From positions 4,942-68,941 of the forward strand of contig JAKSVK010000005.1 of assembly GCA_024408075.1 (NCBI GenBank): a stretch of DNA of 64,000 nucleotides, written 5' to 3'. How positions within the stretch are numbered: position 1 is the stretch's first letter; every line of letters begins with the position of its first letter. The stretch is from Bacilli bacterium. Its GTDB lineage: Bacteria > Bacillota_I > Bacilli_A > RFN20 > CAG-826. The notes beneath the pieces are model-generated. The model was given only the letters and a program-made list of their open reading frames with translations, had not been told where the DNA came from and did not search any database. Of the stretch, positions 3,177-26,067 are shown piece by piece. Position numbers and translations under genes: made by a program.

Positions 3177-4406
3177 TTAATCTCTTTTAAATATATCTCT
3201 TGAATAAACTTTTTCTTTAATATCATCTATAGATGAATCATATCGATTTGCGATAACTATATGGCTCATCTTTTTAAACTTTTTAAGGTCATTAACAACT
3301 AATGAGCCGAAAAATGTTTCTCCATCTTCAAGAGTAGGCTCATAAACGATAACCTTAGTACCTTTTCCTTTAATTCTTTTCATTATTCCTTGAATGGCAC
3401 TTTGTCTAAAATTATCAGAGTTTGTCTTCATTGATAGACGATATACACCTATAATGATTTCTTTTTCTTTGTTCTTTGAATATTCCTCAAACGGCGAATA
3501 CGAGCCAGCTTTTTCTAAAACTTTATTAGCAATATAATCTTTTCTTGTTTTATTTGATTCCACTATTGCCGATATAAGATTTTGAGGAATATTAGCAAAA
3601 TTAGCAAGTAATTGCTTTGTGTCTTTTGGTAAGCAATATCCTCCATAACCAAATGATGGATTATTATAATGGGTCCCAATACGAGGGTCTAAGCACACAC
3701 CATCAATAATTGATTTTGAATCAAGAGACATGTATTCAGCATATGTATCAAGTTCATTAAAATACGAAACACGCATTGCAAGATATGTGTTTGCAAAAAG
3801 TTTTACTGCTTCTGCTTCTGTTGTCCCCATATACAAAATAGGAACATCTTCTTTTATCGTGTTTTCTTTTAAAAGAGTCGCAAATTCAGAGGCGCGTTCA
3901 TTATTTTTTCCATCAAATCCAACAATAATTCTTGAAGGATATAAATTATCTTCAAGAGCTTTTGATTCTCTTAAGAACTCAGGGGAAAATAAAATATTTG
4001 AGGTTTTATGTTTTTCATTTAATTTTTTTGTAAATCCAACAGGAATTGTTGACTTAATAACAATCGTAGCTTTTTTATTTTGTTTGAGCACTTCTTCAAC
4101 TACGGTTTCAACACTTGATGTATCAAAGAAATTTCTCTTTGAATCATAATTAGTTGGGGTAGCTATTATGACAAAGTCAGCTTGTTTATAAATTGCCTCT
4201 GTCTTAGTGGTCGCAACTAAATGTAATTGTTTTTCTTTAAAATATTTCTCAATATATTCGTCTTTTATAGGAGATATTCTTTTATTTATTTGATCAACTT
4301 TGTCACTAACAATATCAACAAGTTTTACTTCATTAGATAAAGAAAGCAAAACTGAAAGACTAAGTCCAACATAGCCCGCACCAACAATAACTACGTTTTT
4401 GTTCAT
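3177..4406 (-). CDS. ugd: UDP-glucose 6-dehydrogenase
   Basis: [12 protein letters not shown] Rossmann motif and catalytic GGYCLPKD motif. Start trimmed to [11 protein letters not shown] (ATG 4406), which has a GGAG Shine-Dalgarno sequence; the ORF-track start at 4472 overlaps the upstream gene. Confidence 0.9.
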
Positions 4407-4407
4407 G

Positions 4408-5466
4408 TTATTTATCTCCTTTTTTGATAATGTAAAAACTATAATACCATTCTGCAAATTTTGATAAGCCATCTTCCAGAGAAGTCGTTGGTTTATAATT
4501 GAAATCTTTTTCTAATTTACTTGTATCTGCATAGGTAACAGGAACATCTCCAGGTTGCATATCAACGAATTCAAGATGAGAATCAATGTCAAAATTATTA
4601 GGGAGAACTTTAAATTTCTTAAGGTTATCTCCAAGAATATGAACAAAATCTATCAAATTCTTAGGATGATTATTCCCAATGTTATAAATTTTATATGGAG
4701 GAATTGGTAGGCCATCTTCACCATCGCTTTTCTTCGGAGCTTTTGACATTATTTTGATAATTCCATCTACAATATCATCAATATAAGTGAAATCACGTTT
4801 GCAATCACCATGATTAAAGATTTTAATCTTTTCTCCTTTAACAAGCTTATTAGTAAAAGAAAAATAAGCCATATCAGGTCTACCTGCAGGGCCATAAACC
4901 GTAAAAAAGCGTAATCCTGTAGTAGGAATATTGTAAAGTTTTGAGTAGCAATGCGCTAAAAGTTCATCGCATTTTTTTGTTGCTGCATACAAACTTACTG
5001 GGTTATCAACTTTATCATCTTCTGAAAATGGAATTTTTTTACTTCCACCGTAGACCGAAGAGCTTGAAGCATATACTAAATGTTCAACAGGATATTTTCT
5101 ACAAGCCTCTAAAATGTTATAAAAACCAATTAAATTAGATTGAATATAAGCATCTGGATTTTCAATTGAATATCTAACGCCAGCTTGAGCAGCTAAATTC
5201 ACAACAATATCAAAATTATATTCGTTAAACAATTTAAGAAGCGATTGCATATCGCACAAATCGCTTTTAATGAATTTAAAAGAAGATTTACTATCAAGAC
5301 TTTGAATTTCAGACAATCTAAAATTTTTAATTTTAGTATCATAATAATCATTCAAATTATCTAAACCAACTATTAAATAATTAGAGTTAGTACTTAATAA
5401 TTTTTTAACAAGATTGGCTCCAATAAATCCAGCAGCACCAGTAACTAAAATTTTCTTTTCGAACAT
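4408..5466 (-). CDS. NAD-dependent UDP-glucuronate 4-epimerase-like SDR
   Basis: [31 protein letters not shown] and YAATK (YxxxK), which is the typical Cap1J/LpsL-type pattern. Sits directly upstream of ugd. Confidence 0.75.
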
Positions 5467-5485
5467 ATAATCACCACTTCTTTTA

Positions 5486-7393
5486 TTATTTTTTCAAATA
5501 TCCTAATATATCTTCAATTATTAATGATGAATCACCAACAATTAATTTCTGATATTTTTGAACAAATTTCTTATTTTCAAACTTTATCGCAGTAGCTTCA
5601 TCCCTATAAACAAATAAACATTTACTCCAAATTAGAGATTTCTTGGCTTTTTCAACAAAGCTTATATGTGTATTTTTATCACACACAACTATCAAGACAC
5701 TTGTTTTAATCTTTCTAAATTGTTTTGAAAGAATTTTTCGATGGTTTAAATCTTCATAATTAACCACAATGTATGCTGGTTTGTATTCAATTATATCTTG
5801 GATAAGTTTAGTGCGTTGTTCTTCTGTAACTATCTCACTAGGATTAAAAATCATGTTGTTACGTTTCTTGTCATCAATTAATAAACCATCAGCAGCAAAA
5901 TAATAAGAGCTATCAAAATTATCCATAAGCGTTTTGTAATGAACGTCTTCTGGAACAACAATTTCACTTTTTTTATTATTGAATGAAGCAATAATTATTG
6001 TTGAGATTAATGAGATTAATATTGATGTAGGGAAGAAAATTTGATCAGTTAAAGTAAACAAGAATCCGAACATCATTGGGACATAAAAGCCAAAGCGATA
6101 ATTGGTAATTTTTATTCTCTTTTGAAATTTGATTAAACAATAAACAATTAAACCAATAAAAAGTAAAGTTATTGGTAATCCATACCCACATGCAAGTTGG
6201 ACAAAATTGGTGTGTGGAGGGGCAGAAAGAGCATATTCATGCAAAATATTAGTCGCTCCAACACCGAAAAGAACATAATTTGCTTTAGTGAACATTTTAG
6301 AAAAATATTCCGAAATCAAAGTTAAACGATTGCCGGCAGATGAAGCATCTTTTTCAAAGAATCTATTCACAATACGAATTAAAGTTTTAGTATCTATAAG
6401 TGATAGTAAGGATATAAATAATAAAACTGAAAATAAAACAATAAAAGCATCAATTGGTTTTGTTCTTTTATGAATTATTGAAAACACAAGTACTGCAATT
6501 CCTAACAAAATTACAAACAATATAAAACTACGAGAGTTTGTCCAAAAACCGAACAATATAATTACAATGCCAAGAATAATGCATGCAATTTTATCTTTTT
6601 TATTTTGTATAACCGGATAAATAAAATAAGCGGACGCTCCACCAATTAAGGCGCTTAATCCAACATTATTTGAATTTTCACCTATACGCATATCGCTTAC
6701 ATATGGATAAGGAACTTTACATCCAGTATTAACCCAATTTACAGCATTGTCCCTTGAGCCAAAACGATATGAATTTAATAAATTTTTAAAATTAACCCAA
6801 TCATAAGCTCTATGTCGAATACCCCAAATGCCAACTTCAACTACTTGGAAAGTAACTAAAATATAAGTAACAACATACCCAAAAATAAGCATCAAAACGT
6901 GCTTATAATTAAACAACTTTCTATTATAAAAACAAAAACATAAGAAGAATAGAGCACAAAACAAACGAATTGAATCTTTAATGTTTAAATTTCCATAGGC
7001 AAGCGTTAAAACTATTTCTAATAAACAGAAAAATAATGGAACAGAAATTATTAAAATCCATGTTTTAATTGAAAATTTCTTAAAAAATCTAATTATAATA
7101 AAAGCTACCAAAATGCCAAAAATAAATAAATCTGGTAAGCCTATTGCAAACGGAACGGTATAAACAAAAAGATATAAAAAATAATTATTATTTAATAAGA
7201 TCGAAAAAATAAGACAAAAAGCAACAAACAAGTATTTATTTATAGCTATATGAAATACATCTCTTGTTAAACACAAAAGCGGAAGCAATACTAAATACGA
7301 AATAAAAATAATTTTTTGTAGTTTCGATGCATTAAACAAAGACTGCATTTTAAAACTTACTAATTCTAAAGGTTTTTTTAACGCGTTCATCAT
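5486..7393 (-). CDS. Wzy-like polytopic membrane protein (O-antigen/capsule polymerase or ligase family) with a C-terminal ~164-aa soluble extension
   Basis: 635 aa, with more than 10 predicted hydrophobic helices over the first ~470 aa. The sequence then continues from NNKKSEIVVPEDV... to the end without any TM segment. Located between wzx and the uronate genes. Confidence 0.6.
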   Translation of the reverse strand: MMNALKKPLELVSFKMQSLFNASKLQKIIFISYLVLLPLLCLTRDVFHIAINKYLFVAFCLIFSILLNNNYFLYLFVYTVPFAIGLPDLFIFGILVAFIIIRFFKKFSIKTWILIISVPLFFCLLEIVLTLAYGNLNIKDSIRLFCALFFLCFCFYNRKLFNYKHVLMLIFGYVVTYILVTFQVVEVGIWGIRHRAYDWVNFKNLLNSYRFGSRDNAVNWVNTGCKVPYPYVSDMRIGENSNNVGLSALIGGASAYFIYPVIQNKKDKIACIILGIVIILFGFWTNSRSFILFVILLGIAVLVFSIIHKRTKPIDAFIVLFSVLLFISLLSLIDTKTLIRIVNRFFEKDASSAGNRLTLISEYFSKMFTKANYVLFGVGATNILHEYALSAPPHTNFVQLACGYGLPITLLFIGLIVYCLIKFQKRIKITNYRFGFYVPMMFGFLFTLTDQIFFPTSILISLISTIIIASFNNKKSEIVVPEDVHYKTLMDNFDSSYYFAADGLLIDDKKRNNMIFNPSEIVTEEQRTKLIQDIIEYKPAYIVVNYEDLNHRKILSKQFRKIKTSVLIVVCDKNTHISFVEKAKKSLIWSKCLFVYRDEATAIKFENKKFVQKYQKLIVGDSSLIIEDILGYLKK

Positions 7394-7452
7394 TTAATTA
7401 TTCCTAAGCCACTTAAAGTTTATCATAAATAAAGATAAATAGTTAATAACAA

Positions 7453-8940
7453 CTACTTATCTTCCTTTCTATCTTTTTTATGAAAATGGTTTTTAAAGAA
7501 ATTTATAACCTCGAGACGTATATTTAAATAAACATCATTTTTTAATAATTTGCACAATAAAAGATAAATACAAGCGCCAACAACAATTTGGACGACTAGT
7601 AAAACAATGTAGTTTATTTTAATGTAACTTAATCCCAAAACAACACCACCCATAACAACAGCACTTAATATTGTTTTCCATGAATCTTTAAACATGTCAA
7701 ATAAACTGTAACCAATTATTCTTTTTACAGGAATCATAATAACGATTACATCAACCCACATACTAATAGCAAAACCAATTGCTACAGCAATAACACTATT
7801 AAAACAAGCAAGCGAAATAATCAAAATGCCAATCATAATTATTCTTCTAACAATTTCAAGTATAAGGTAAACATTTGATTTTCCAAGTGCTTTAATAGCC
7901 ACTAAATTAGCAGAAGAGAAAGGCATAGTAGCCCAAGCTATAGCTATAAGTTGTAGATAAGGCACGCAAGGTAACCATTTATCTGTTAATAATAATTTAA
8001 CAAGTGGCTCTGCTATTACTAATAATCCAAACATAGCAGGTAAAATTAGCAAAATACTAACTTTTACTGTCTTACTAAGCATATATTTCACTTTCTTCTT
8101 ATCTTCTTGAACAGAGCTTATTGTAGGAAGCATAACGTTTTGTATTGAACTATCTAATGTGGTAGCAATTATATAAGGAATTTGACGGCCTCTATCGTAA
8201 TAAGCCAAATCTGCCTCAGAATATTTTTTCCCAATTATAATTGAGCGAATGTTGTTATAAAAAGCAGTCAGTAATGCGGAAACAAGCATTTTCCAACCGA
8301 AACTAAATAATACTTTGGCTTTTTCCAATGAAAATTTTAATTTTGGAAACCATTTTTGAACAATTGCCATACCAGCGCAAGAAAGCAAACTATGTAACGC
8401 ATAGTAAAGCAAAATAGACCAAACTCCCAAGCCAAGATAAGCTGAAACAATTCCAACAGTTCCTGAAATAACACTAGAAACAATATTTACCAGCATCAAT
8501 TCTTTGAATTTCATTTTCTTTTCTAATCTAGCTGATAAAACAGAACTAAATGGAACAAAGAGCAATGAAAATGAGTAAACTTGAATGATTTTTACTAATG
8601 AATCAGAATGGTAAAACTGACTAATTACTGGCGCACAAAAAAATAGCACCACAACCATTACAGCAGAAACTGCTAAATTAATAATGAAAACAGTAGAAAA
8701 ATCAAGATCATCAACTTCTTTTTTTTGAACAAGAGCTACTTTAAACCCACCAGCAATGATTGTCTGAGAAATATCAACAAAAGCCATAACAATAGCAACA
8801 ATACCAAAATCATTTGGTGACAAAATCCTTGCTAAAACTATGCTAATTATTAAACCAATAGCTTTTGAAATAAGACTTATTATTACAGAATACGCCATTG
8901 ATGACGCTACTACTTTTTTAGTAATTGGTTTAGTTTCCAT
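7453..8940 (-). CDS. wzx: Polysaccharide flippase, MOP/Wzx family
   Basis: 495 aa and highly hydrophobic, with a roughly 12-14 TM pattern. The N-terminus resembles the Polysacc_synt family. Context is a glycan locus. Confidence 0.75.
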   Translation of the reverse strand: METKPITKKVVASSMAYSVIISLISKAIGLIISIVLARILSPNDFGIVAIVMAFVDISQTIIAGGFKVALVQKKEVDDLDFSTVFIINLAVSAVMVVVLFFCAPVISQFYHSDSLVKIIQVYSFSLLFVPFSSVLSARLEKKMKFKELMLVNIVSSVISGTVGIVSAYLGLGVWSILLYYALHSLLSCAGMAIVQKWFPKLKFSLEKAKVLFSFGWKMLVSALLTAFYNNIRSIIIGKKYSEADLAYYDRGRQIPYIIATTLDSSIQNVMLPTISSVQEDKKKVKYMLSKTVKVSILLILPAMFGLLVIAEPLVKLLLTDKWLPCVPYLQLIAIAWATMPFSSANLVAIKALGKSNVYLILEIVRRIIMIGILIISLACFNSVIAVAIGFAISMWVDVIVIMIPVKRIIGYSLFDMFKDSWKTILSAVVMGGVVLGLSYIKINYIVLLVVQIVVGACIYLLLCKLLKNDVYLNIRLEVINFFKNHFHKKDRKEDK

Positions 8941-8986
8941 AATTTTTAAAAATTATATCATTTCAAAATTTTTTTAAAACTTAATT

Positions 8987-10075
8987 CTAATTTTCAATTA
9001 TCTCAAGTAATGTTTTAAATGACTTTTCATCTGAGCAAAAATCAATTATTTTTTTACGAGCGTTGTTGCCCATGTTTTCAATTTGAGAAGTAGACAAATT
9101 AATAGCAGAAATAATGCAGTCACAAATAGATTTTGCATCTCCTGTTTTGGCTAAAAAACCATTTACACCATCATCAATTAAATCTTTTGGTCCAGTTTTA
9201 CAATCAGTTGAAATACAGATTAATTTAGATGCCATTGCTTCAATTAATGAATTAGGAAGTCCTTCATAATCAGACGTCATCAAAAATGCATCAGCATTCT
9301 CATATTCTTTCAGTATTTCAGAAGAATATCCTTTTAAGAAAACAACATTTTCTAATTTTTTTTCTTTAATTATTTTCTCCAATTCTTGAGCATATCGTTC
9401 ATTCCCTTTTCCAAAAATATTTAACTTAATACTTGGATAGTTTTTATGCGCAATTCTGAATGCTTCTATCATTAAGGGATAATTTTTTTGAGGGTTTAGT
9501 CTCCCAGATGCTATAAAATTGCGGATTTCATTAGATAATTTCATCGGTTCATTATCAATTATTTTTGGTGTTAACGGATTGCTAATAACTATGCATTTTT
9601 TTTGATTTTTCTTAGAAAAAAATTTAATTTGTTCATTTGTTTGAACAATAATACAATTTGCTTTATTAAAACATCTTCTCCACAAAAACTTGCAAATTCT
9701 ATTTTTTTGAAAAATATACCATGGATTATTCCTTACAGTTTCTATCCTCTTAAATTTCAGTCCAATCGAAGCAAGATTGCACCAAATTTGAGTAGTAGGT
9801 AGAAAGGAGATAACAACATCAGGTTTCTCTTTTATTAAAATACTGCGATAAGAAAAATATCTATTTATATAACTCATTTTTTGAAAATCATTATATTTTG
9901 AGGTTATCGAAAGAATTTTAACATTAGGAGAAATTTGATATTCGTTTTCTCCTCTTCCGCAAATTAGAATCGAAACATCATAACCAGCTTTGTAAAGCTT
10001 GCTTGACCATATAGAAACAACTCTTTCTGCTCCACCACCAAATAATTGACCAACTGCTAAAATAATTTTTTTCAT
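8987..10075 (-). CDS. Glycosyltransferase, GT4 (GT-B fold)
   Basis: N-terminal GGAERV motif and a C-terminal EX7E-type motif, SDYEGLPNSLIEAMASKL. Confidence 0.8.
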   Translation of the reverse strand: MKKIILAVGQLFGGGAERVVSIWSSKLYKAGYDVSILICGRGENEYQISPNVKILSITSKYNDFQKMSYINRYFSYRSILIKEKPDVVISFLPTTQIWCNLASIGLKFKRIETVRNNPWYIFQKNRICKFLWRRCFNKANCIIVQTNEQIKFFSKKNQKKCIVISNPLTPKIIDNEPMKLSNEIRNFIASGRLNPQKNYPLMIEAFRIAHKNYPSIKLNIFGKGNERYAQELEKIIKEKKLENVVFLKGYSSEILKEYENADAFLMTSDYEGLPNSLIEAMASKLICISTDCKTGPKDLIDDGVNGFLAKTGDAKSICDCIISAINLSTSQIENMGNNARKKIIDFCSDEKSFKTLLEIIEN

Positions 10076-10080
10076 AATTA

Positions 10081-10986
10081 TTAACCTTTTATTACTGGTG
10101 GGAGTTCAATCAAATTTCCCAATGTTAAGTCCCAATTATTTGGAATAAATTTCTTAAATCCACAATCGGAAAAGAATGTATATTCTGAAAAATACACTTT
10201 GTTATTAATAATATAAAAATCGGTACGAATGTGTGGAAAATCAGCACTTAATTTTCTTGCTAAATTCAAAATTTCATCTAGTTTTTTAGGTTTTGGCAAA
10301 ACAATAGAACTATTTGGAAAATTCTGTCTAATATCAAGCTTTTTCCAATTTACATCATAATAATCAACAGTTTCATTTTTTGTTTTATCATTCAAAATTA
10401 CTTGAATAAGTTTTGGTTCGCCACCAAAGTTTAGGACTTTATAAACTGGTAACACATCGTAGTTTCCATCTTTCATATATGTTTCTACCAAAATTCTTGG
10501 TTTTACATTTTTATATGGCCATTCTCTGCCACGATAAAAATAATTCTGTTTCATAAGATTCTTAAACTTTTCCTTATACAAACCAGGTTCAAATTCATTC
10601 TTATTTTTACAAATAACGACGCCACCGCTATTATGGGTTAATTTAATTACAAATTGATTAGGCAGAATATCAAAGTCAATTTCATCAAAAGAATTATAAA
10701 TTCCAATTGAAGGAATAACATATTGTTCACCAATTTTTTCGGAAATAATTTTTTTAACATCATATTTATCTACCATTGTCGAAAAATCTTTTTTACGATA
10801 ATACAGTTTCAGCCATTGAAGTTTTTCATTAAATGTTTTTGGCTGTTTTAAATTTAGTCTTTCGCCAGTTTCAATTTTATAACAAATTTTTAAGTATGTT
10901 TTGTCGTTAATCCAATTTAGAAAACCATGATCACGAAATGAAAAAAATAATTTTTTGAATGTATATTTTTGTTTTCTTTTATTCAT
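10081..10986 (-). CDS. TupA-like ATP-grasp protein (teichuronopeptide-type amidoligase family)
   Basis: Family hallmark FNEKLQWLKLYYRK is present, along with VIKLTHNSGGVVICKN and a C-terminal DFYIINNKVYFSEYTF. Call is by motif recognition only. Confidence 0.65.
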   Translation of the reverse strand: MNKRKQKYTFKKLFFSFRDHGFLNWINDKTYLKICYKIETGERLNLKQPKTFNEKLQWLKLYYRKKDFSTMVDKYDVKKIISEKIGEQYVIPSIGIYNSFDEIDFDILPNQFVIKLTHNSGGVVICKNKNEFEPGLYKEKFKNLMKQNYFYRGREWPYKNVKPRILVETYMKDGNYDVLPVYKVLNFGGEPKLIQVILNDKTKNETVDYYDVNWKKLDIRQNFPNSSIVLPKPKKLDEILNLARKLSADFPHIRTDFYIINNKVYFSEYTFFSDCGFKKFIPNNWDLTLGNLIELPPVIKG

Positions 10987-10993
10987 AATAATC

Positions 10994-12076: not shown

Positions 12077-12080
12077 TGTT

Positions 12081-14314: not shown

Positions 14315-14337
14315 ATTAATTTAATGCAATTTGCCTA

Positions 14338-15051: not shown

Positions 15052-15054
15052 TCT

Positions 15055-16122: not shown

Positions 16123-16126
16123 ATAC

Positions 16127-17245: not shown

Positions 17246-18357
17246 TTTGTTTCCTTCCTAAATACTTCATCTAAAATTTTTTCTGTTAGATCACCGAAAA
17301 ATGGTCCCATTAAAGCTTGAGTATACATTGTGTCAATTTTACGCATATTAACTTCAATTAAAACTATATTTTCATTTTCATCAACACATAAATCAACTCC
17401 AACAAACCTAAAATGACCTGTATACAAACTTACTTTTTTAGCGGTTTCAAGCATACATTCAAAATTAGGAATTTTAATTTGAGACAGAGGCATTCCATCT
17501 GGATGAGTTTTAAGGCGATTACCACTATGAAAATCAGAAGAACTTATTGCGTTTGGCATTATTGTTCCATCTTCATTAATTGGGGCAAGAATGCTAGATT
17601 TTGCACTAACATTATCAACACGACTAGTTCCTGCTCCCATTCTCATAACAGCACTTAAAATATGAACACCATCTTCTAACAACATTGTGGTAACTCTAAC
17701 CGTATTCAAAGATTCAGGATGCATTTTTCCCATTTCCGGATGCTGTTTAATTATTTGCTGAACAACAAAATTTTGTTCTTTTCCATTTAAAAGATTATCG
17801 AGTGCTTTTTTATCGGTTTTTGTATTATAAAATTTAATATTTTTGCCACCACCCGTATCTTGAGAAGGTTTAACTATTACTTCATCATTTTTTAATATAA
17901 TATCCATGGCTTTTTTTGATGTTAGTAATTCGTAATTTTCATCAAACAACAATGAATCAATCTTTCTAACTAATGTTTTTGGTTGTTTAAATTTAGAAAA
18001 AATTAAAGAGTAATTATTTTTATCATTAAAACCATATGATAGTTTTCTAGAATTAAAATGTTGGTCAATTTTAGTTTGCATTATATCTTCAGGAATATAA
18101 CGTGGATCAAACTTGCCAGTCATAAAAGTAAAATATCTAAACCAATTCATTTTTACTTTACAATAAGGTTTCCAATATGCTCGTACAGCTTTTTTCTGTT
18201 TCGAAGTTAGTCTAGGCATTCCTTTTATTAATTTTCTTAGTTGTTTTCTTTTTAAGAAAATAACTCCAATATTCTCAGCTTTAATTGCAGGAGCCTCAAA
18301 CAATTTATAATATAAATTTCTAACTCTTTTACTTATTTTCATCTTTTTGCTCCTCAC
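17242..18357 (-). CDS. ATP-grasp ligase, sugar-transfer-associated type (paralog B)
   Basis: VIVKPSQDTGGGKNIKFY and IEVNMRKIDTMYTQALMGPFFGDL. ATGA overlap with paralog A, and overlaps the end of the PGT gene. Confidence 0.6.
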   Translation of the reverse strand: MRSKKMKISKRVRNLYYKLFEAPAIKAENIGVIFLKRKQLRKLIKGMPRLTSKQKKAVRAYWKPYCKVKMNWFRYFTFMTGKFDPRYIPEDIMQTKIDQHFNSRKLSYGFNDKNNYSLIFSKFKQPKTLVRKIDSLLFDENYELLTSKKAMDIILKNDEVIVKPSQDTGGGKNIKFYNTKTDKKALDNLLNGKEQNFVVQQIIKQHPEMGKMHPESLNTVRVTTMLLEDGVHILSAVMRMGAGTSRVDNVSAKSSILAPINEDGTIMPNAISSSDFHSGNRLKTHPDGMPLSQIKIPNFECMLETAKKVSLYTGHFRFVGVDLCVDENENIVLIEVNMRKIDTMYTQALMGPFFGDLTEKILDEVFRKETK

Positions 18358-18997
18358 TACTTATTACGCTTGATTTACTTTCATCATTTTTAGAAGACTG
18401 ATTTCTATAAACACCTTTATGAGAGAAAACTGTTGGAACAGTCATAAATAATATTTTTAAATCAAGCCATAATGAAATATGTTCAACATAATAAACATCC
18501 GTTTCGCAATGTTTCAAAAATGAAGTTGAATTCCTTCCTTGTGATTGGTCTAATCCTGTTAGTCCAGGAAGAACATTAAACTTTTTTAAATAGAACTTAG
18601 GATATTTTTCAATATTGCCTAATGGGCTAGGCCTTGGTCCAATAAAAGACATTTGACCAATAAGAATATTAAAAATTTGAGGTAATTCATCTATACTAGT
18701 TTTTCTTATAAATTTGCCTACTTTAGTTACTCTAGGGTCATCAATTGAGTTATAGGTAGTCCCGTCTTCATTTCTAATATCTAACGCATCGACTTTCATG
18801 GATCTGAATTTGAGCATTTTAAATTCTTTTATATTTTTTCCAAGTCTTTTATCTAAATAAAATATTGGACCATGATCCTCAATCAATATTGCAATAGCGA
18901 CGGGAATTGTTATAAGCAATACAAAAGGCATTATGATTAGTGAACCTAATATATCAAAAAACCTTTTAATTATTACCCTATAAAACGTTCTCATCAC
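18329..18997 (-). CDS. Small monotopic phosphoglycosyl transferase (bacterial sugar transferase, PglC/WbaP C-terminal type), the initiating enzyme
   Basis: KRFFDILGSLI, KMLKFRSM and DELPQIFNILIGQMSFIGPRP. Confidence 0.85.
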   Translation of the reverse strand: MMRTFYRVIIKRFFDILGSLIIMPFVLLITIPVAIAILIEDHGPIFYLDKRLGKNIKEFKMLKFRSMKVDALDIRNEDGTTYNSIDDPRVTKVGKFIRKTSIDELPQIFNILIGQMSFIGPRPSPLGNIEKYPKFYLKKFNVLPGLTGLDQSQGRNSTSFLKHCETDVYYVEHISLWLDLKILFMTVPTVFSHKGVYRNQSSKNDESKSSVISSEEQKDENK

Positions 18998-19851
18998 TAC
19001 TTATCCTCTAATTTAATTTTTTGTAGACCTTCCCAAAATGAATACAAATGCTTATACCCAGCATTTTTAATTTTTGATGTATCAAAATACGAATTAATTA
19101 TCGTTTCTTTGATTGAATCGTTATATGTCAAATTCCCTACATTGTCAAAACACTCATTGATTTTTGTAGCAACTTCTAAATTAGTTAATGGTTCTCCACT
19201 TCCTAAATTATAGATTTGGTTTGTTGTTTTGAACTCATAAACGCTCCAAACAAGGGCATTGATTACTTCTCCAACATAAATAAAGTCGCGCTTTGCAATG
19301 CTATTCCCGTTTAATAATAGTTTTTCTTTCGCTTTTGCATTATCGATAAAAATTGAAATCATTCTTTTTAAAACGTCCCCACCATAAACAACACTGCATC
19401 TAAAAATTGTGTATTCAATTCCTTTTAAAGAGTAATTTTTAATAAGTTGCTCACATTTTTGTTTAGATATTCCATATGCTGATTGAGGAAATAGTTCTTG
19501 TTCCTCTGTCCAAGGAATAGCCTTTTGATCTGAATAAACTGCAATTGAAGACAAAAATATAATTCTTTTAACATTTGCATTAACCATTGCTTTTAAAATA
19601 TTCTCAGTTAATTTTTCGTTTTCTTTAAATAAAGAGTAATTATTTTCAGTTCCTCTTCTAGCTGCTAAATGAATAATCACATCTGCACCTTTAAAAATAT
19701 TAGCTAAATTATTAACGCTGTAATCGGTGTTTTCTAAGCCATCTTCTTGATCCTTAGTTAACCCAACTATTTCATCTTTTTTGTTTTCTTTTAAATACGA
19801 AAATAATCTACTTCCAATATTTCCAGATGCACCAGTAATAATTATTTTCAT
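18997..19851 (-). CDS. NAD(P)-dependent epimerase/dehydratase/reductase (SDR)
   Basis: IIITGASGNIGSRL and YGISK (YxxxK). Confidence 0.7.
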   Translation of the reverse strand: MKIIITGASGNIGSRLFSYLKENKKDEIVGLTKDQEDGLENTDYSVNNLANIFKGADVIIHLAARRGTENNYSLFKENEKLTENILKAMVNANVKRIIFLSSIAVYSDQKAIPWTEEQELFPQSAYGISKQKCEQLIKNYSLKGIEYTIFRCSVVYGGDVLKRMISIFIDNAKAKEKLLLNGNSIAKRDFIYVGEVINALVWSVYEFKTTNQIYNLGSGEPLTNLEVATKINECFDNVGNLTYNDSIKETIINSYFDTSKIKNAGYKHLYSFWEGLQKIKLEDK

Positions 19852-19852
19852 T

Positions 19853-20953
19853 TTATAACTTCCTAATGTAATACCCTATTTTGTCAAATCTACCATTTAC
19901 TGGACGAATCTCATCTCCATCTTTATAGTAATAGAAATGATAAATTGCATCTCCAGGTAACTCTAATTTTGATCTATCCATTTTTGTATGTGGTTCTTGA
20001 CACCAAAACACTAATTCCATTGGGATGATCTTATCGTTTAATTTGTTGAGTTCACTAACATCATTATTTAATAAATGCTCAAAAGTTAATTTCATCAAGT
20101 TGACATTTGTAGACTTCTCTAAAACATTCCACATATGGCAACCATCAAGTCTAGGTGTAACTTCAATAAGATAGACTTCATTTTTCATTATTTTGAGTTG
20201 GAAATAGGCAGGACCGTTTTCAATTCCTATTCTTTTGCTGCAGTCCTTTACCAAATCAATCATTTTATTTTTTAAGTTGTTATCAAAGGTTTTGCCAGGA
20301 ACAATATGACGATGAATTAAACCTGGGTATTTTTCCCACGTATCTCTATCTGAGGCGACAAAATATCTCAGTTTTCCATCAACAAAATATGCATTAACAG
20401 AAATTTCTGGGCCATCAATATATTTTTCAACAATGACTTTTCCTTGACGAGAAAACTGTTTTGCTTTTTCAAATTTTTCTTCAAGCTCATTTTGGTTATG
20501 AATTATAAATATACCTCTTTGGCCTTGAGAATCTGAAGGTTTTAAGAAAACAGGAAAATCAATCTTAATTGGCTCAACTTCTGATAACACTTGATAAGGA
20601 ATATTACCTTTACATTCACTAGATAATTTATTTCTTAGTTCATTTTTATGATTGCAAATATAAGCAGTTGCTTCACTTACAAAATGAGGCATATTTAAAT
20701 CCTCGCTAATTTTACATGCGACAGGCATTGCTAAATCAGATCCAGCAGAATAAACAACATCAATATTGTTTTTCTTAATATAACTTTTAATCTCTTCAAC
20801 ATTTAATATATCAATAACATCAAAATGATCAGAAGCATCTGCTGCCGGGCCATCTTTACCTCGAGCAATTGTAAATGTCTCATGACCCATTTTTTTAAGC
20901 TCAATTACCGCATCGTATTGAGCAGATGATACTCCAAGAATTAAAACTTTCAT
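19853..20953 (-). CDS. ATP-grasp domain ligase (carbamoyl-phosphate-synthase-L/PylC-like)
   Basis: A pre-ATP-grasp Rossmann N-terminus, then FLKPSDSQGQRGIFII and VEKYIDGPEISVNAYFVDG. ATGA overlap with the aminotransferase gene. Confidence 0.65.
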   Translation of the reverse strand: MKVLILGVSSAQYDAVIELKKMGHETFTIARGKDGPAADASDHFDVIDILNVEEIKSYIKKNNIDVVYSAGSDLAMPVACKISEDLNMPHFVSEATAYICNHKNELRNKLSSECKGNIPYQVLSEVEPIKIDFPVFLKPSDSQGQRGIFIIHNQNELEEKFEKAKQFSRQGKVIVEKYIDGPEISVNAYFVDGKLRYFVASDRDTWEKYPGLIHRHIVPGKTFDNNLKNKMIDLVKDCSKRIGIENGPAYFQLKIMKNEVYLIEVTPRLDGCHMWNVLEKSTNVNLMKLTFEHLLNNDVSELNKLNDKIIPMELVFWCQEPHTKMDRSKLELPGDAIYHFYYYKDGDEIRPVNGRFDKIGYYIRKL

Positions 20954-22236
20954 TTTTTATTTTCCTTGTCTAAATATTTTGAAACCACGCTCTTAAAGCA
21001 TTCGATAACATAATTAACATCTTCATTCGAAAGCTTGCTATATAAAGGAAGTGAAATTTCATTTTCGAATTTAGCATAAGCTATTGGATATTCCTTAATA
21101 TCAAATCCTAAATTTTTGTATGCAGTAAGAAGAGGGAGTGGCTTGAAATGAACATTTGCACAAACTCCAAATTTTGATAATTCAACAATTATCTCATTAC
21201 GTTCTGCACAATTTATACCAGGTATTCTAGTAGCGTAAATGTGTCCTGAACTAATATAATCGTTGGTACAGTGATTTAATGTTTCAATACCTAAAGGTTT
21301 AAAAGCTTTGTCATACATTTTAATAATCTCATGCCTTCTAGAAACCATTTCAGGATATCTTTCTAATTGGCCGAGTCCAATAGCTGCCATGATGTCGGTC
21401 ATGTTGCTTTTATACCATGTTCCAACAACATCATATTCCCAAGCGCCTAATCGTTCTTTTGAATAAGCATCTTTGTTTTGACCATGTAAACTATATAGTT
21501 GAATTTGATGGTATAAATCATCATCATCTATCCCATCAAAATGTTTAAAAGTAAGTGCGCCGCCTTCACCAGTAGTGAAGTTTTTTGTTGCATGAAAAGA
21601 AAACGCGGTAAAATCGGCAATGGTTCCGATTCGTTTTCCTTTATATAAAGCACCTATTGCGTGTGCTGCATCATCAATAATAGCAACTCTTCCTAAGCTC
21701 TTTTGAACTTTTGAGGTTGCTACAAAAATATCTTTTTTTCTATTAACAATTTCAAAAATCTTCTCATAATCGCAAGGAACGCCAGCAATATCTACAGGAA
21801 TAATCGCTTTTGTGTTTTCATTTATTGCTCCTTCAAGTTTTTCATAATTCATTTCAATTGAACCATTTTTATTTGAACAATCAATTAAAACAATTTTGGC
21901 TCCAACATGATTAATAACTGAAGCTGAAGATGTATATGTATAAGCACAAGTTATAACTTCATCTTTAAGACTTCCGCCAGATTGTGGGCCAACACCAAGT
22001 AAACGCAAAGCAATCTCCAAAGAAGCGGTTGCAGAATTAAGGCATACACATCTAGCACATTCTTGTTTCTCTTTGTTAGTAAGATATTCGGCAAGTTTTT
22101 TCTCAAGTAATTTAGTTTTTGGCCCGGTAGTAATCCACCCAGAACGTAAAACCTCAGCGACATTATCAATTTCTAATTGAGATATATCAGGAATTGTAAA
22201 CTTAATTTCTCTTTTTTCCATTTTTAATTGCCTCAA
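20950..22236 (-). CDS. DegT/DnrJ/EryC1/StrS-family sugar aminotransferase (PglE-like)
   Basis: DDAAHAIGA and SFHATKNFTTGEGGAL (PLP lysine motif). Confidence 0.85.
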   Translation of the reverse strand: MRQLKMEKREIKFTIPDISQLEIDNVAEVLRSGWITTGPKTKLLEKKLAEYLTNKEKQECARCVCLNSATASLEIALRLLGVGPQSGGSLKDEVITCAYTYTSSASVINHVGAKIVLIDCSNKNGSIEMNYEKLEGAINENTKAIIPVDIAGVPCDYEKIFEIVNRKKDIFVATSKVQKSLGRVAIIDDAAHAIGALYKGKRIGTIADFTAFSFHATKNFTTGEGGALTFKHFDGIDDDDLYHQIQLYSLHGQNKDAYSKERLGAWEYDVVGTWYKSNMTDIMAAIGLGQLERYPEMVSRRHEIIKMYDKAFKPLGIETLNHCTNDYISSGHIYATRIPGINCAERNEIIVELSKFGVCANVHFKPLPLLTAYKNLGFDIKEYPIAYAKFENEISLPLYSKLSNEDVNYVIECFKSVVSKYLDKENKK

Positions 22237-22239
22237 AAG

Positions 22240-22887
22240 TTAATTGCTCATTCCTTCATCTAACATTTTTACTACTTGAAATCCTTCGGCGTATTCGACT
22301 TCATTTGAATAACCCCAAACATGATTTCTTTCGATATTCATCTCAAAAAGTCTATTCATTCTATTATGTTCTGGGCCATAGTAAGATAATGCCTTTTTCT
22401 TAAGTTCAACAAAATCAGAAATATCCACAAAATAACTTTGCGTAAAATTCATTTCTAGAGCATAGCCATTGCTTACGTATTCTAAAATGTTTTTGCAATG
22501 TCTCGCAGCGGTAAGACAAATTTTATTTGCTTCAACATGATCATTATTCATATCCATTCCAAAATGAATAAATACTGTATCAATGTTGTATTTATAAATT
22601 ATGTTTTCAACTTGTTGCATTATTTCTTTGCTATAAGCAAGGGTTGAACAAGGAACTGGATTTTCATTTTCAATTTCAATAACGCCTAACGCTTTCGAGG
22701 CCATTTTACTCGCATTTTTTGAAGAATCATAAGAAACATTAATGTTTCTTTCTTTAAAATCTGTTTCATTATCAGTAAGTGTGAATTTAAAAACTTTTTT
22801 GCCGTTTTTAACTAGTTTGGCCATCGTTCCACCACAACCTAATTCGGTATCATCGAAATGTGCACCAATAAAAAGTATGTTTTTCAT
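22240..22887 (-). CDS. PIG-L/LmbE-family N-deacetylase
   Basis: ILFIGAHFDDTELGCGGTMAK (AHPDD-type metal motif) and a downstream NNDHVE. Confidence 0.75.
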   Translation of the reverse strand: MKNILFIGAHFDDTELGCGGTMAKLVKNGKKVFKFTLTDNETDFKERNINVSYDSSKNASKMASKALGVIEIENENPVPCSTLAYSKEIMQQVENIIYKYNIDTVFIHFGMDMNNDHVEANKICLTAARHCKNILEYVSNGYALEMNFTQSYFVDISDFVELKKKALSYYGPEHNRMNRLFEMNIERNHVWGYSNEVEYAEGFQVVKMLDEGMSN

Positions 22888-22899
22888 GTTCTACCTCTT

Positions 22900-24054
22900 T
22901 TATTTACTTTCAATTTCTTTAATTATTTTTTTAACAAGTGATTCCATTGTGAAATCAGAGTATTCACTTAAAATATAATCAAAAGGAATTCTTTCTTTAT
23001 TTTTTGACTCTTTAATAAATTTCTCAATTTTGTGTATTTTTTCATCAGTTAGTTCATCGTTTTGATAAACACAGATTTTATTTTGATAATCTTGTAAATA
23101 CTTTGTCCCGCAACAATCTTTAATTTTCTCAATATGCAAAATTGGTTTGCCTGAAGCAATAAAATCAATTACTTTGCTTGGACACATATTTGTAGAATCA
23201 TGTCCCATACTAACCAAAACATCAGCATTAAGCATTACGTTATGTGCATCATTTTGACTAATTCTTTCATGGCAAATGTATTTATCTTGTAACTTTTCTT
23301 TCCATAGATTAATAGTGTTCTCATAATCACCAAGTTTCCCAATTGTGTAAAGCTTTACTGGAAGTGAAATTTTTTCAAATAATCTAAAAATAAAATCTGT
23401 ATTCTCAACACCTAAATAAAAATCACCTAGAAAAACACAGTTTATAAATTTAGGGTCAAAATTGATTGGACATTTATCATTTGTTTTCTTAATTTGACGA
23501 ATGCATGGAAGATGAAAATAAATAATCTTTTCTTTAAACGAAGCATTTTTGTAATCTTCTTCAAATTCTTTTAGAAATAATATTTTATTTGAGCGATTAA
23601 ACGCTTGTTCTTCGAGCTTAATAAATTCTTTCTTCTGTTCCATGCTTATGTGTGGATTATATGCATATGGATCAAACGAAATTGGAATCCATTTACATTT
23701 TCTATCTTTTAAAGCTTCAAATGTTAAAAGATTAACTTCAAATGCTTCTGCAACCGAGAACACACAGTCGTATTTTGTTGTATCAAGAATTTTTCCAATT
23801 GAATAAATAACGTTTCTACATTTTTCAAAACAAATATTTTGTCTTGGATAATCTTTTAGTTTAATGATGTTTACTTTGTTATGTTTGTCTGAATAAGAAA
23901 AAGATTTCCCAGATATCTCAATAGGGAAAACATCAACAGTGTATCCAAGGTTAGTTAAAGCTTCAGCAGTGCGGACAGTAATGCTGGTTGTAGCACTTGA
24001 ATCTGGATAATATGTATCTGTTATAAATAACAATCTTTTTCTAAGGTTTTCCAT
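22900..24054 (-). CDS. GT-B-fold glycosyltransferase-like protein (divergent)
   Basis: LLFITDTYYPDSSATTS N-terminus and C-terminal PSKVIDFIASGKPILH. No clean EX7E motif. Confidence 0.5.
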   Translation of the reverse strand: MENLRKRLLFITDTYYPDSSATTSITVRTAEALTNLGYTVDVFPIEISGKSFSYSDKHNKVNIIKLKDYPRQNICFEKCRNVIYSIGKILDTTKYDCVFSVAEAFEVNLLTFEALKDRKCKWIPISFDPYAYNPHISMEQKKEFIKLEEQAFNRSNKILFLKEFEEDYKNASFKEKIIYFHLPCIRQIKKTNDKCPINFDPKFINCVFLGDFYLGVENTDFIFRLFEKISLPVKLYTIGKLGDYENTINLWKEKLQDKYICHERISQNDAHNVMLNADVLVSMGHDSTNMCPSKVIDFIASGKPILHIEKIKDCCGTKYLQDYQNKICVYQNDELTDEKIHKIEKFIKESKNKERIPFDYILSEYSDFTMESLVKKIIKEIESK

Positions 24055-24062
24055 GCAACTAA

Positions 24063-24071
24063 ATTATAACA
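24063..24071 (-). promoter_or_regulatory. Extended -10 element (TGtTATAAT) 8 nt upstream of ATG 24054
   Basis: The minus strand reads ttgTTATAATttagttgcATG. No Shine-Dalgarno sequence lies between the -10 and the ATG. Confidence 0.35.
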
Positions 24072-24186
24072 ATACTTAAAGTATAGTTATATTAGCGTGA
24101 TATCTCAATTTATTTTTTTGCCACCAAAAATAAAACTTAAAAAATGATAATAATTTTTTAATAGTTAATCCAACAACTATGATAAC

Positions 24187-26067
24187 CTACTTATCGTCTT
24201 TATCAATTGTGTATGTTTCAATTATCGATGCTAATAATTTTTTAACATCAGTGGTTTCTTCCATATTAAACACATTTGAAATAGTTCTAATTTCTTCTTC
24301 GATTGGTTTAATTGATTCTTTTTCTTCTACAAAAATACGTTCATTTTTTGTTCTTGTCTGAGTATTCACATCTAGAAGCAATTCTTCAAACAATTTTTCT
24401 CCGGGTCTTAAACCAGTTTCAATAATCTTAATATCTTTATCAGGGACTAAGCCGGCTTGCCTAATTAACTTAATTGCGAGATCATAAATTTTAACTGGTT
24501 TGCCCATATCCAAAATAAAGATCTCTCCACCTTCTGCATATAACCCACATTGAAGGATTAAACTAACTGCTTCTGGTATAGTCATAAAATATCGAACAAT
24601 ATCTTTATGAGTTAATGTAATAGGTCCACCTTCTTCAATTTGTTTCTTAAATAACGGAACAACTGAACCATTTGAGCCTAAAACATTGCCAAAACGAACT
24701 GCAGCATAAGCTGTATTTTTAGATTTTTCTGAAAAATATTGAATTATGGTTTCTGCAAAGCGCTTTGTTGCACCCATAGTATTTGTAGGTCGAACAGCTT
24801 TATCGGTACTTATTAACACCATTTTCTTAACCTTATATTTATCTGCAAATTTCGCAACATTATATGTACCGATAACATTCGTTCTAATAGCTTCTATAGG
24901 ACAGTCTTCCATTAATGGAACATGTTTATATGCAGCGGCATGATAAATGTAATCTGGCTTATATTTCTTGATAATTTGTTCAACACTAGTTTCGTTATAT
25001 GTTGAGCCAATTAATGCAATAAGTTCAATATCATTAATATTTTCTTTTCTCATTTTACGAATGAGTTCTTGTTGAATGTCATAAGTACAGTTTTCGTAAA
25101 TATCAAAAACAATTAACTTCTTAGGATGCATTTTAAAGATTTGACGCATAAGTTCCGAACCAATGGATCCACCACCACCAGTAACTAAAACTGTTTTACC
25201 TCTTAACATCTCATTAACTTCAGTGTTGTCTAATTTAATTGGATCTCTATTAAGAAGCTCTTCAATATGAACATCCGTTACCTTAATATCTTTTCGAGAA
25301 GATATTTCACTTAAAAGCGGGAGTCTACGAACTCTTACATTACATGCTGATAAGCAATCAACAATTTCGCGAAATCTTTCTTCCGTTAAATTAGCAATTG
25401 CAATAATTGCTTCTTCAATTTCATATTCTTTTGCTATCTTTGAAACGTTACTAATCGGACCGACTACATCAATATTGAAATACGGTGTTCCAAATTTCTT
25501 TTCATCATCATCTACCAATACAACAATATTATTTTCTGACTTTGGATTATTTTTTAAATCATCAATAACAATTTTTGCAGCAGCACCTGCACCAATAAGC
25601 ATCGTGCGAACTCCAAGCTTTCTTTTTTCATTCATTCTTTGTACTACTTTAATTTCTCTAGGTAGATCACGAATAAATATGAGTAATAATAAAATCGCTA
25701 GAGAAGTCAAAAGCCACGTAATAATGTGTTTAGTTGTAAAATGAAGTTCTTTAACTGCAAAAAGAACAATTAAACCTATCAAAGCTGAAATAGAGTAGCC
25801 AATAGCAACTTTAATTCTATCGGTTAAGCAATAGTCATCGTATTGAGTGCGATAAAGCTTAACAAAAGCAAAAATAACAACAGTAATTAAAGCAGTACCA
25901 CTACAGTATAAAAGAATTCCAGTTAATGAACTAGCAAACGCATCTTTTGAGTATGAGCCAAGAAATCCTAAAAATGTTATGCCAAATATAATGGTTATAT
26001 CTAATAATATGTATAATTTTGTTAATGTAAAAAGCTTTTTCATAGATGCCTGATATAATACAGGCAT
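24187..26067 (-). CDS. Membrane-anchored UDP-HexNAc 4,6-dehydratase (CapD/PglF/Polysacc_synt_2)
   Basis: Four N-terminal TM helices, then VLVTGGGGSIGSEL, AAAYKHVP and STDKAVRPTNTMGATKR. The start is ambiguous (ATG 26067 or ATG 26043). Confidence 0.85.
   Translation of the reverse strand: MPVLYQASMKKLFTLTKLYILLDITIIFGITFLGFLGSYSKDAFASSLTGILLYCSGTALITVVIFAFVKLYRTQYDDYCLTDRIKVAIGYSISALIGLIVLFAVKELHFTTKHIITWLLTSLAILLLLIFIRDLPREIKVVQRMNEKRKLGVRTMLIGAGAAAKIVIDDLKNNPKSENNIVVLVDDDEKKFGTPYFNIDVVGPISNVSKIAKEYEIEEAIIAIANLTEERFREIVDCLSACNVRVRRLPLLSEISSRKDIKVTDVHIEELLNRDPIKLDNTEVNEMLRGKTVLVTGGGGSIGSELMRQIFKMHPKKLIVFDIYENCTYDIQQELIRKMRKENINDIELIALIGSTYNETSVEQIIKKYKPDYIYHAAAYKHVPLMEDCPIEAIRTNVIGTYNVAKFADKYKVKKMVLISTDKAVRPTNTMGATKRFAETIIQYFSEKSKNTAYAAVRFGNVLGSNGSVVPLFKKQIEEGGPITLTHKDIVRYFMTIPEAVSLILQCGLYAEGGEIFILDMGKPVKIYDLAIKLIRQAGLVPDKDIKIIETGLRPGEKLFEELLLDVNTQTRTKNERIFVEEKESIKPIEEEIRTISNVFNMEETTDVKKLLASIIETYTIDKDDK

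Follow-up and report, generated by a model that had tools for sequence, protein, structure and literature searches.

Four ATP-Grasp Ligases of Three Families in a Probable Wzx/Wzy-Type Glycan Operon of a Bacilli Bacterium

Gene content of the operon

The 64,000-nucleotide stretch of DNA analyzed here, from a Bacilli bacterium of the GTDB lineage CAG-826 (GenBank assembly GCA_024408075.1, contig JAKSVK010000005.1, forward-strand positions 4,942 to 68,941; hereafter the window, numbered from its first letter), carries at 3177–26067 a block of 20 open reading frames (ORFs), four of which encode ATP-grasp ligases. The block is most likely a Wzx/Wzy-type glycan operon for a heteropolysaccharide with several amide-linked substituents. 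The initial annotation of this DNA, made from the sequence alone, had described a co-oriented and tightly packed set of 20 genes, and this is confirmed by ORF positions, strand and gaps: all 20 ORFs lie on the minus strand where the annotation had placed them, and the intergenic spacing runs from −14 to +59 nucleotides (nt) with the sole exception of 132 nt after the CapD gene. Because the gaps between these same-strand genes are so tight, 3177–26067 very probably is a single operon. Promoter and terminator scans at both operon ends gave sites no more frequent than in shuffled sequence, and the operon boundaries are therefore not defined by them. Gene identities were taken from Pfam scans at curated thresholds, complemented by some NCBIfam and PDB sequence comparisons, and are given below from high to low coordinates (Pfam matches with E-values in brackets), the list being headed by the phosphatase gene directly upstream of the operon.

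26155–27123, minus strand: PAP2 phosphatase, directly upstream of the operon (PAP2 4.2e-15; SepP-like 8e-13, under its cutoff)
24187–26067, minus strand: membrane-anchored PglF/CapD-type UDP-N-acetylglucosamine (UDP-GlcNAc) 4,6-dehydratase, 626 aa (Polysacc_synt_2 6.6e-118; four N-terminal transmembrane-like segments)
22900–24054, minus strand: GTBq, predicted orphan GT-B (GT4-like) glycosyltransferase, 384 aa, paired with PIG-L (from predicted structure)
22240–22887, minus strand: PIG-L family de-N-acetylase (PIG-L 1.3e-14)
20950–22236, minus strand: DegT/PseC-type sugar 4-aminotransferase (DegT_DnrJ_EryC1 6.5e-85)
19853–20953, minus strand: ATP-grasp_4 ligase, Pyl-like, 366 aa (ATP-grasp_4 2.7e-16; CPSase_L_D2 2e-10)
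18997–19851, minus strand: short extended short-chain dehydrogenase/reductase (SDR), 284 aa (Epimerase 4.7e-39)
18329–18997, minus strand: small monotopic phosphoglycosyltransferase (PGT), the initiating polyprenyl-phosphate enzyme, 222 aa (Bac_transf 1.9e-60; one N-terminal hydrophobic segment)
17242–18357, minus strand: ATPgrasp_ST ligase A, ST_A (PF14397 8.1e-40; start overlaps the end of the PGT gene)
16127–17245, minus strand: ATPgrasp_ST ligase B, ST_B (PF14397 1.3e-31)
15055–16122, minus strand: GT2 glycosyltransferase (Glycos_transf_2 1.8e-37)
14338–15051, minus strand: DUF1919 protein (PF08942 4.4e-29), a family recurrent in exopolysaccharide (EPS) and capsule loci
13127–14314, minus strand: glycosyltransferase GT4_d (Glycos_transf_1 7.8e-39)
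12081–13130, minus strand: glycosyltransferase GT4_c (Glycos_transf_1 1.1e-35)
10994–12076, minus strand: glycosyltransferase GT4_b (Glycos_transf_1 8.9e-36)
10081–10986, minus strand: stand-alone TupA-like ATP-grasp ligase, 301 aa (PF14305 6.4e-58)
8987–10075, minus strand: glycosyltransferase GT4_a (Glycos_transf_1 7.1e-37)
7453–8940, minus strand: Wzx flippase of the MOP family (Polysacc_synt_3 2.7e-91; 13 transmembrane-like segments)
5486–7393, minus strand: Wzy-like polymerase, 635 aa (Wzy_C 9.4e-7, below cutoff; 11 transmembrane-like segments)
4408–5466, minus strand: extended SDR, probable UDP-glucuronate 4-epimerase (Epimerase 3.1e-58)
3177–4472, minus strand: UDP-glucose 6-dehydrogenase, Ugd (three UDPG_MGDP_dh domains; TIGR03026 314 bits against a cutoff of 190)

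The Pfam matches agree with the CapD dehydratase, aminotransferase, PIG-L protein, SDR, small PGT, Wzx and Ugd of the initial annotation, and both an initiating PGT and a MOP-family flippase are thus present. The seven glycosyltransferases it had counted reduce to six (one GT2, four GT4 and GTBq), the presumed seventh at 14338–15051 being the DUF1919 protein. The latter has its best PDB match in 2g6t, an uncharacterised protein; a literature search on DUF1919 returned no reported function, and neither the PDB match nor the literature gives evidence for or against a hidden acetyltransferase activity. GT4_d, which is 49% identical to the GT4 enzyme encoded after the PGT in Bacillus luti, is the probable second-sugar transferase. 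The true start of Ugd is probably M23, at about 4406. For the SDR at 4408–5466, which the annotation had called a UDP-glucuronate (UDP-GlcA) 4-epimerase, the best PDB match is 5u4q (2e-105) and the second is the Bacillus cereus UDP-GlcA 4-epimerase 6zl6 (1.3e-48), from which the assignment appears plausible. The Ugd–SDR pair is kept in a related locus (L007) at 64–67% identity and, with both genes encoded in the operon, a uronic-acid target is at hand.

The four ligases and their characterized relatives

All four ligases exceed the curated Pfam thresholds (bits against cutoff: TupA-like 196.5/25, ST_A 137.2/31.4, ST_B 110.3/31.4, ATP-grasp_4 60.0/27) and have intact motifs, in line with the four ATP-grasp enzymes of three subtypes proposed at the outset. 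The canonical ATP-binding Lys, the Mg-binding acidic/Asn residues and the catalytic Arg are present in each of them. Thus, K163, D322, E335, N337 and R339 are invariant in a 33-sequence ATPgrasp_ST alignment that includes both ST_A and ST_B, which share 28% identity; K115, E168, R254, D256 and E268 are invariant across 12 homologues of the TupA-like ligase, whose PF14305 match spans profile positions 1–240 of 241; and the motifs KPS...GQRG and IEVTPR can be read in the ATP-grasp_4 protein. The latter finds its best PDB matches in 4dim, deposited as a phosphoribosylglycinamide synthetase, and in the L-amino-acid ligase 3vot, and PDB sequence searches with ST_A and the TupA-like ligase returned no solved relative. 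Structure prediction, carried out among the ligases for ST_A only, gave a confident AlphaFold model (predicted local distance difference test score, pLDDT, 90.8) that Foldseek matches with probability 1.0 to Ddl, VanA, RimK and L-amino-acid ligases.

The closest characterized counterpart of the upstream half of the operon is the yelosamine cassette of B. cereus (4,6-dehydratase, aminotransferase Pat, ATP-grasp enzyme Pyl and small PGT), the arrangement of which is matched in the window. Pyl joins 2-oxoglutarate to a UDP-4-amino sugar, as described in PMC11257628 and as the title of the original publication, cited in PMC8987622, indicates. The window ATP-grasp_4 enzyme is 57% identical over its full length to a protein of B. 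luti (HGH7179063.1), a member of the B. cereus group, and 60% identical to one of Mediterraneibacter gnavus, and both relatives reside in cassettes of the order CapD, DegT, acetyltransferase or insertion sequence (IS), ATP-grasp, SDR and small PGT. In B. luti the shared order extends over CapD, DegT, ATP-grasp, short SDR, small PGT and GT4, with identities of 41, 55, 57, 34, 54 and 49%, respectively. The B. luti cassette differs from that of the window in having a hexapeptide acetyltransferase between aminotransferase and ligase and CpsC/D/B regulators upstream, and in lacking ATPgrasp_ST, TupA, PIG-L and GTBq. On these grounds the window enzyme is a probable ortholog of Pyl. The label ATP-grasp_4 covers two types of ligase: the 366-aa type of the window, which travels with the short SDR, and an L-amino-acid-ligase type of about 400 aa, found beside a GNAT acetyltransferase in most clostridial loci, that is 22–24% identical to it. 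The short SDR itself (18997–19851) has its best PDB match in 3m2p, a B. cereus 'UDP-GlcNAc 4-epimerase' (1.8e-42). M. gnavus, a cultured human gut species (loci L056 and L057), combines a Pyl-like cassette with a TupA-like ligase; an IS encoding a DDE transposase lies between its aminotransferase and ligase genes, and further transposase genes occur along the locus.

For the TupA-like ligase the closest precedent is the HS:2 capsule of Campylobacter jejuni, in which the C-terminal TupA-like domain of Cj1438 (Cj1438C) amidates the C6 carboxylate of glucuronic acid (GlcA) on the growing chain before addition of the next sugar, with ethanolamine phosphate or serinol phosphate as amine donor (PMC11800379); for related enzymes, among them WemR of Proteus, a role in attaching amino acids to surface polysaccharides has been predicted (PMC13419641). 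The window shares with the HS:2 locus the PF14305 family, a Ugd gene and a ligase gene placed among glycosyltransferase genes, a position that, by analogy, would fit amidation during chain assembly. In contrast, Cj1438 is a GT2–linker–ATP-grasp fusion in an ABC-transporter-type (group 2-like) capsule system, whereas the window ligase is stand-alone in a Wzx/Wzy locus, and the dedicated phosphatase Cj1435 of the former has no counterpart here, nor is there a serinol pathway gene among the 20 genes. Pfam scans of these 20 genes revealed neither a phosphatase, of HAD or other type, nor an additional aminotransferase as equivalents of Cj1435 and Cj1437, and the amine donor therefore probably differs from those of Cj1438. 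The initial annotation had proposed decoration with amide-linked amino acids or small acids; amide decoration is likely, and its partners need not be amino acids since the analogues use 2-oxoglutarate (Pyl) and ethanolamine phosphate or serinol phosphate (Cj1438).

The teichuronopeptide system of Bacillus halodurans (TupA) presumably shares with the window a TupA-family ligase and a uronic-acid-containing polymer. Pfam scans detected no PgsB/CapB-type or PGA_cap gene in the window locus, and the earlier description of its product as teichuronopeptide-like is not upheld in the strict sense. PGA_cap (CapA-like, of the poly-gamma-glutamate capsule family) does occur in many related loci, where it replaces ST_B.

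ST_A and ST_B belong to PF14397, the 'sugar-transfer associated ATP-grasp' family; both match the family and follow directly on a sugar transferase gene, the association behind the family name. A profile search of 1.84 billion representative proteins retrieved 6,560 ATPgrasp_ST clusters at E ≤1e-10. A full-text literature search on ATPgrasp_ST and PF14397 found no paper, a PDB search found no solved structure, and a literature search on amide-linked amino acids in polysaccharide gene clusters gave no match. Profile–profile comparison of ST with TupA produced a local match of 38 columns only (E 0.003, probability 9.5%), which is so marginal that TupA biochemistry is not transferable to ST by homology. 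Distant family members occur in cultured bacteria, for instance within the EPS cluster of a plasmid (CP066001.1) of Lactococcus garvieae FDAARGOS_1002. Possible action of ATPgrasp_ST enzymes at the membrane, on the sugar or sugars first attached to the lipid carrier, is suggested by the fixed position of ST genes after the PGT, by an N-terminal domain that is basic and helical, and by weak similarity to glutamate ligases of the RimK type. ATPgrasp_ST domains are also found in much longer proteins, of 447–1208 aa (locus L049, from a Vescimonas sp. metagenome-assembled genome, MAG; proteins P0304, P0306, P0350 and P0393), some of which are tandem double-ST fusions with two matched stretches.

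The remaining unusual pair of the operon is GTBq and the PIG-L deacetylase. A Pfam scan of GTBq yielded no significant match (Glycos_transf_1 E = 1e-3), a profile search of the PDB no solved relative, and hhalign comparison with the GT4 enzymes of the window a weak similarity (E 0.007, probability 5.6%). The AlphaFold model (pLDDT 88) superimposes with a Foldseek TM-score of 0.70 on the GT-B-fold GT4 enzymes 6eji, MshA and BshA, on the basis of which we consider GTBq a putative GT-B glycosyltransferase. Its family counts 63 proteins among 5.8 billion, none of them from a cultured organism, and is without a Pfam model. In the related loci described below GTBq usually adjoins PIG-L, and the pair occurs only in loci with ST_B (6 of 6, against 13 of 46; Fisher p = 0.0013, uncorrected for shared ancestry). 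The best NCBIfam match of the PIG-L protein is BshB1 (5.9e-20, below its cutoff). The combination recalls bacillithiol and mycothiol biosynthesis, in which a GT4 enzyme (BshA/MshA), a PIG-L deacetylase (BshB/MshB) and an amine-acylating ligase cooperate: the window has an adjacent GT4-fold enzyme and PIG-L protein that co-occur with an extra ligase, ST_B. It differs in that the acceptor would be a lipid-linked glycan rather than malate or inositol and in that the ligase is an ATP-grasp enzyme, not one of BshC/MshC type; the resemblance is one of fold and logic only, all family scores being below cutoff.

Ligase counts and gene order in related loci

A scan of one genome per species returned 49 loci that encode ST relatives, all from MAGs and mostly from animal-gut Bacteroidales and Clostridia. 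Their ORFs were labelled by iterative searches seeded with the window proteins, and duplicate contigs were removed. In the 36 non-redundant loci of at least 15 kb, every one of them from a gut MAG, ATP-grasp genes number two in 12 loci, three in 13, four in 7, five in 2, six in 1 and seven in 1, counts that are lower bounds (10 kb was covered on each side) and that come from loci chosen for having ST. Eleven of the 36 thus have at least four such genes, and the three-family mix of the window recurs in six. The initial annotation had held that typical loci have none or one ligase, a baseline that may fit well-studied pathogens and that fails for every one of these 36 loci, with their two to seven. 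The window architecture accordingly represents a recurrent class, in which four ligases are no outlier in the lineage.

Two closer relatives illustrate both conservation and modularity. In L058 the ATP-grasp_4 protein is 84% identical to that of the window and the gene order is identical, including the position of TupA among the GT4 genes, while L001 is 64–90% identical gene by gene, with 66% for the Wzy-like protein, the only genes missing from it being those for TupA, CapD, PAP2 and an esterase encoded further upstream (see below). The presence of TupA in L058 and its absence from L001 are as expected for a modular decoration gene. PAP2 is missing from L001 and from L059.

Across the set a common order recurs: DegT, optionally a GNAT or hexapeptide acetyltransferase, one or two ATP-grasp_4-type ligases, optionally an SDR, the small PGT, ST_A and then ST_B or PGA_cap. 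In 40 of 46 loci the gene immediately after the PGT is ST_A, the gap in nearly all of them being at most 26 nt, and an ATP-grasp_4-type gene lies no more than two genes downstream of DegT in 34 of 35. The 284-aa SDR keeps its position in L001, L005, L006, L054, L056 and L058. ST_B and PGA_cap are near mutually exclusive, with one exception among 52 loci, and PGA_cap takes the place of ST_B after ST_A in L003, L015, L023, L027, L031, L034, L035, L037, L039 and L045. The name of PF14397 already implies an association with sugar transfer; what is new here are figures showing how often ST is coupled to the small PGT, how ST_A pairs with ST_B and how nearly ST_B and PGA_cap exclude each other. A GNAT or hexapeptide acetyltransferase gene is found within two genes of the aminotransferase, beside the ligase, in 16 of 33 related loci; the earlier suggestion that ATP-dependent acylation replaces acetyl-CoA chemistry does not hold, as acetyltransferases adjoin ligases in these loci and in B. 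luti.

Several individual loci stand apart. Two Ruminococcus sp. MAGs (L046 and L047) have six or seven consecutive ATP-grasp genes plus PGA_cap after a DegT–PGT pair, with two or three of the ATP-grasp_4/L-amino-acid-ligase type followed by four of the ST type; this is the most extreme architecture of the set and makes the two loci the strongest candidates for producing a long side chain of peptide-like character. In a Bacteroidales MAG from horse faeces (L002/L038), genes for SLFN_AlbA_2/HATPase_c_4, 23S_rRNA_IVP and DUF4325/HATPase_c_2 proteins are interleaved with the polysaccharide genes, and a type III CRISPR Cas10/Cas6 pair lies just upstream of the locus. Loci from a Nocardioides sp. 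MAG (L052) and a Planctomycetaceae MAG (L020) fall outside the gut-anaerobe pattern; the former is a 105-nt fragment at a contig end and the contig of the latter measures 52,365 bases against 52,366 for a Christensenellaceae contig, and both may be binning artefacts.

A three-stage model, its alternatives and the operon flanks

With moderate confidence we propose that the single operon directs synthesis of a Wzx/Wzy heteropolysaccharide that is modified by four active ATP-dependent carboxylate–amine ligases at three stages. The proposal starts from what the sequences show, namely which genes are present, how their order is conserved, that the catalytic motifs are intact and that ST_A has an ATP-grasp fold; all its substrates, and the order of its reactions, are inferred. 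The repeat unit would comprise up to seven sugars (one from the PGT and six from the glycosyltransferases). In a first, soluble stage, modelled on the characterized analogue, CapD would dehydrate UDP-GlcNAc and DegT would aminate C4, and the ATP-grasp_4 enzyme would then acylate the 4-amino group of the UDP-4-amino-4,6-dideoxy-N-acetylhexosamine with a carboxylic acid, like Pyl with 2-oxoglutarate; the adjacent SDR may modify the sugar or the acyl group, and the small PGT would move the product to undecaprenyl phosphate. In a second stage at the membrane face, which is suggested by synteny only, ST_A and ST_B, apparently translationally coupled to the PGT, would extend the first substituent or add amide-linked ones on the lipid-linked first sugars. 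Candidate sites are a free carboxylate left by the first stage or the amine of a glucosamine, which would arise by GTBq adding GlcNAc and PIG-L stripping the acetyl group, following the logic of BshA/BshB and MshA/MshB. In a third stage, drawn from family precedent, Ugd and the 4-epimerase would supply UDP-GlcA or UDP-galacturonic acid, and the TupA-like ligase may amidate the C6 carboxylate of the uronic acid during chain assembly, like Cj1438C.

Several observations weigh against this proposal. Compared with known ligases, ST_A reaches a Foldseek TM-score of only about 0.4, because its first ~120 residues form a novel basic all-helical domain that replaces the usual N-domain. The orthology to Pyl rests on the homologue from the B. 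cereus group (B. luti) and not on Pyl of strain ATCC 14579 itself, and the sequence cluster of the B. luti protein contained no member from that strain. The association of GTBq and PIG-L with ST_B is phylogenetically non-independent. Bacteroidales loci have the ST_A/ST_B pair without an ATP-grasp_4-type gene, with a hexapeptide acetyltransferase instead, and the ST substrate therefore cannot always be the product of the first stage. The Wzy_C match of the protein at 5486–7393 scores 29.2 bits, against a cutoff of 31.7. Finally, CpsC/D, Wzz, an exporter and an LCP ligase are absent from the ORFs scanned across the 64-kb window.

The last two points bear on the nature of the end product. The operon might not make a capsule at all, the lipid-linked oligosaccharide being moved either to protein, in S-layer or general O-glycosylation, or onto the wall, as a secondary polymer of teichuronic type, with the Wzy_C protein acting as ligase or oligosaccharyltransferase instead of polymerase and the chemistry of the ATP-grasp enzymes possibly unchanged. 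The Wzy_C domain, sub-threshold here, is common to polymerases, WaaL ligases and O-oligosaccharyltransferases, NCBIfam ranks an 'O-glycosylation flippase' first for Wzx and includes TuaB among the matches, in each case below the cutoff, GT4_a resembles PglH and PglJ, and the ORFs scanned in the window include none of the CpsC/D, Wzz and LCP genes that the B. luti locus has. However, six glycosyltransferases together with Wzx and a multi-transmembrane Wzy_C protein make up a normal Wzy-dependent repeat-unit layout, the NCBIfam matches are all far under their cutoffs, and regulators may sit elsewhere in a fragmented MAG, and we judge a non-capsular end product unlikely, if worth keeping in view.

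Somewhat less probable still is that at least one of the ATP-grasp enzymes makes a soluble precursor, such as a dipeptide, to be attached by another enzyme, or that one of the two ST proteins is non-catalytic. In agreement with such a division of labor, the solved ATP-grasp_4 relative 3vot is an L-amino-acid ligase that joins free amino acids, many clostridial loci have two ATP-grasp_4-type ligases in tandem, and ST_A and ST_B are only 28% identical yet form a fixed pair, with fused double-ST proteins existing as well. Both ST paralogues nevertheless retain every invariant catalytic residue, Pfam scans of the locus show no FemX-type or acyl-CoA ligase enzyme that would attach the precursor, and the analogues Pyl and Cj1438C both act on the sugar directly. 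That the four ligases are redundant or decaying paralogues gathered by recombination between capsule loci, leaving a polymer with at most one amide substituent, would agree with the mosaic nature of the loci (TupA, CapD and PAP2 are variably present among relatives of 64–94% identity) and with the M. gnavus cassette interrupted by IS elements, but is very improbable given that all four ligases are full-length with intact motifs, that they stem from three families with ST paralogues 28% identical and an ST/TupA profile match of only 38 columns, that the same four genes occur in the same order in L058 (ATP-grasp_4 84% identical), and that the ST_A/ST_B pair is kept across phyla.

Beyond the three-stage proposal, a more far-reaching possibility, and a doubtful one, is that the core of these loci (aminotransferase, ATP-grasp, small PGT, one to four ATPgrasp_ST and, in some, PGA_cap) builds a stepwise oligo-amide, that is, a peptide-like chain, on the lipid-linked first amino sugar. 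If true, this would amount to a 'stem peptide', made independently of ribosome and Mur ligases, on a Wzy-polymerised glycan; an undescribed class of glycopeptide surface polymer would then be present on many uncultured gut anaerobes, and ATPgrasp_ST would comprise the first ATP-grasp ligases known to act on undecaprenyl-diphosphate-linked substrates. Should the products bear peptide-like side chains, these would constitute a new charged or zwitterionic decoration among gut glycans. In gut anaerobes, surface glycans influence both susceptibility to phages and recognition by the host immune system, and scarcely anything is known of those of uncultured Bacilli, Oscillospiraceae and Bacteroidales. 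The present locus is a compact example of the recurrent coupling of small PGT and ATPgrasp_ST and as such gives well-defined access to a ligase family that is abundant and, it seems, unstudied, and its neighbouring enzymes resembling the characterized Pyl and Cj1438C offer a defined route to a first ATPgrasp_ST function.

The window derives from a MAG, probably of horse-gut origin: a protein identical to one encoded here is recorded as MJ225_01955 of a Bacilli bacterium MAG, and a Bacteroidales match with locus tags of similar 'MJ' style stems from horse faeces. The rest of the window is core Firmicutes chromosome, with polC, rseP, dxr, cdsA, uppS, frr, pyrH, tsf, rpsB, xerC, topA, dprA and a tRNA cluster. 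The G+C content is about 29% across the window and about 0.28–0.32 over operon and flanks alike; with this uniformity and the core genes adjoining, a mobile-island origin was rejected. Between the operon and the core genes, 26155–30411 encodes the PAP2 phosphatase, a 546-aa carboxylesterase and a 498-aa protein of the choloylglycine hydrolase family. The PAP2 phosphatase is a possible accessory enzyme (undecaprenyl-diphosphatase-like) of uncertain operon membership. In L001 the gene adjoining the operon on its upstream side encodes a distant homologue (27% identical) of the choloylglycine-hydrolase-family protein; neither a PAP2 nor an esterase gene intervenes. Downstream of the operon, window positions 1–2577 encode an ABC transporter, with the ATPase at 1876–2577 followed by a large ORF for an FtsX-like permease, which exceeds 620 aa and continues beyond the window start; this transporter is not part of the glycan operon. 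Finally, between the tRNA cluster and polC, 34819–37256 encodes an AMP-binding (acyl-adenylate-forming) enzyme and a 268-aa HGSNAT/Acyl_transf_3-like membrane acyltransferase, the ORF of which overlaps at its 5' end with tRNA-Pro (37227–37303), so that its TTG start is probably wrong.

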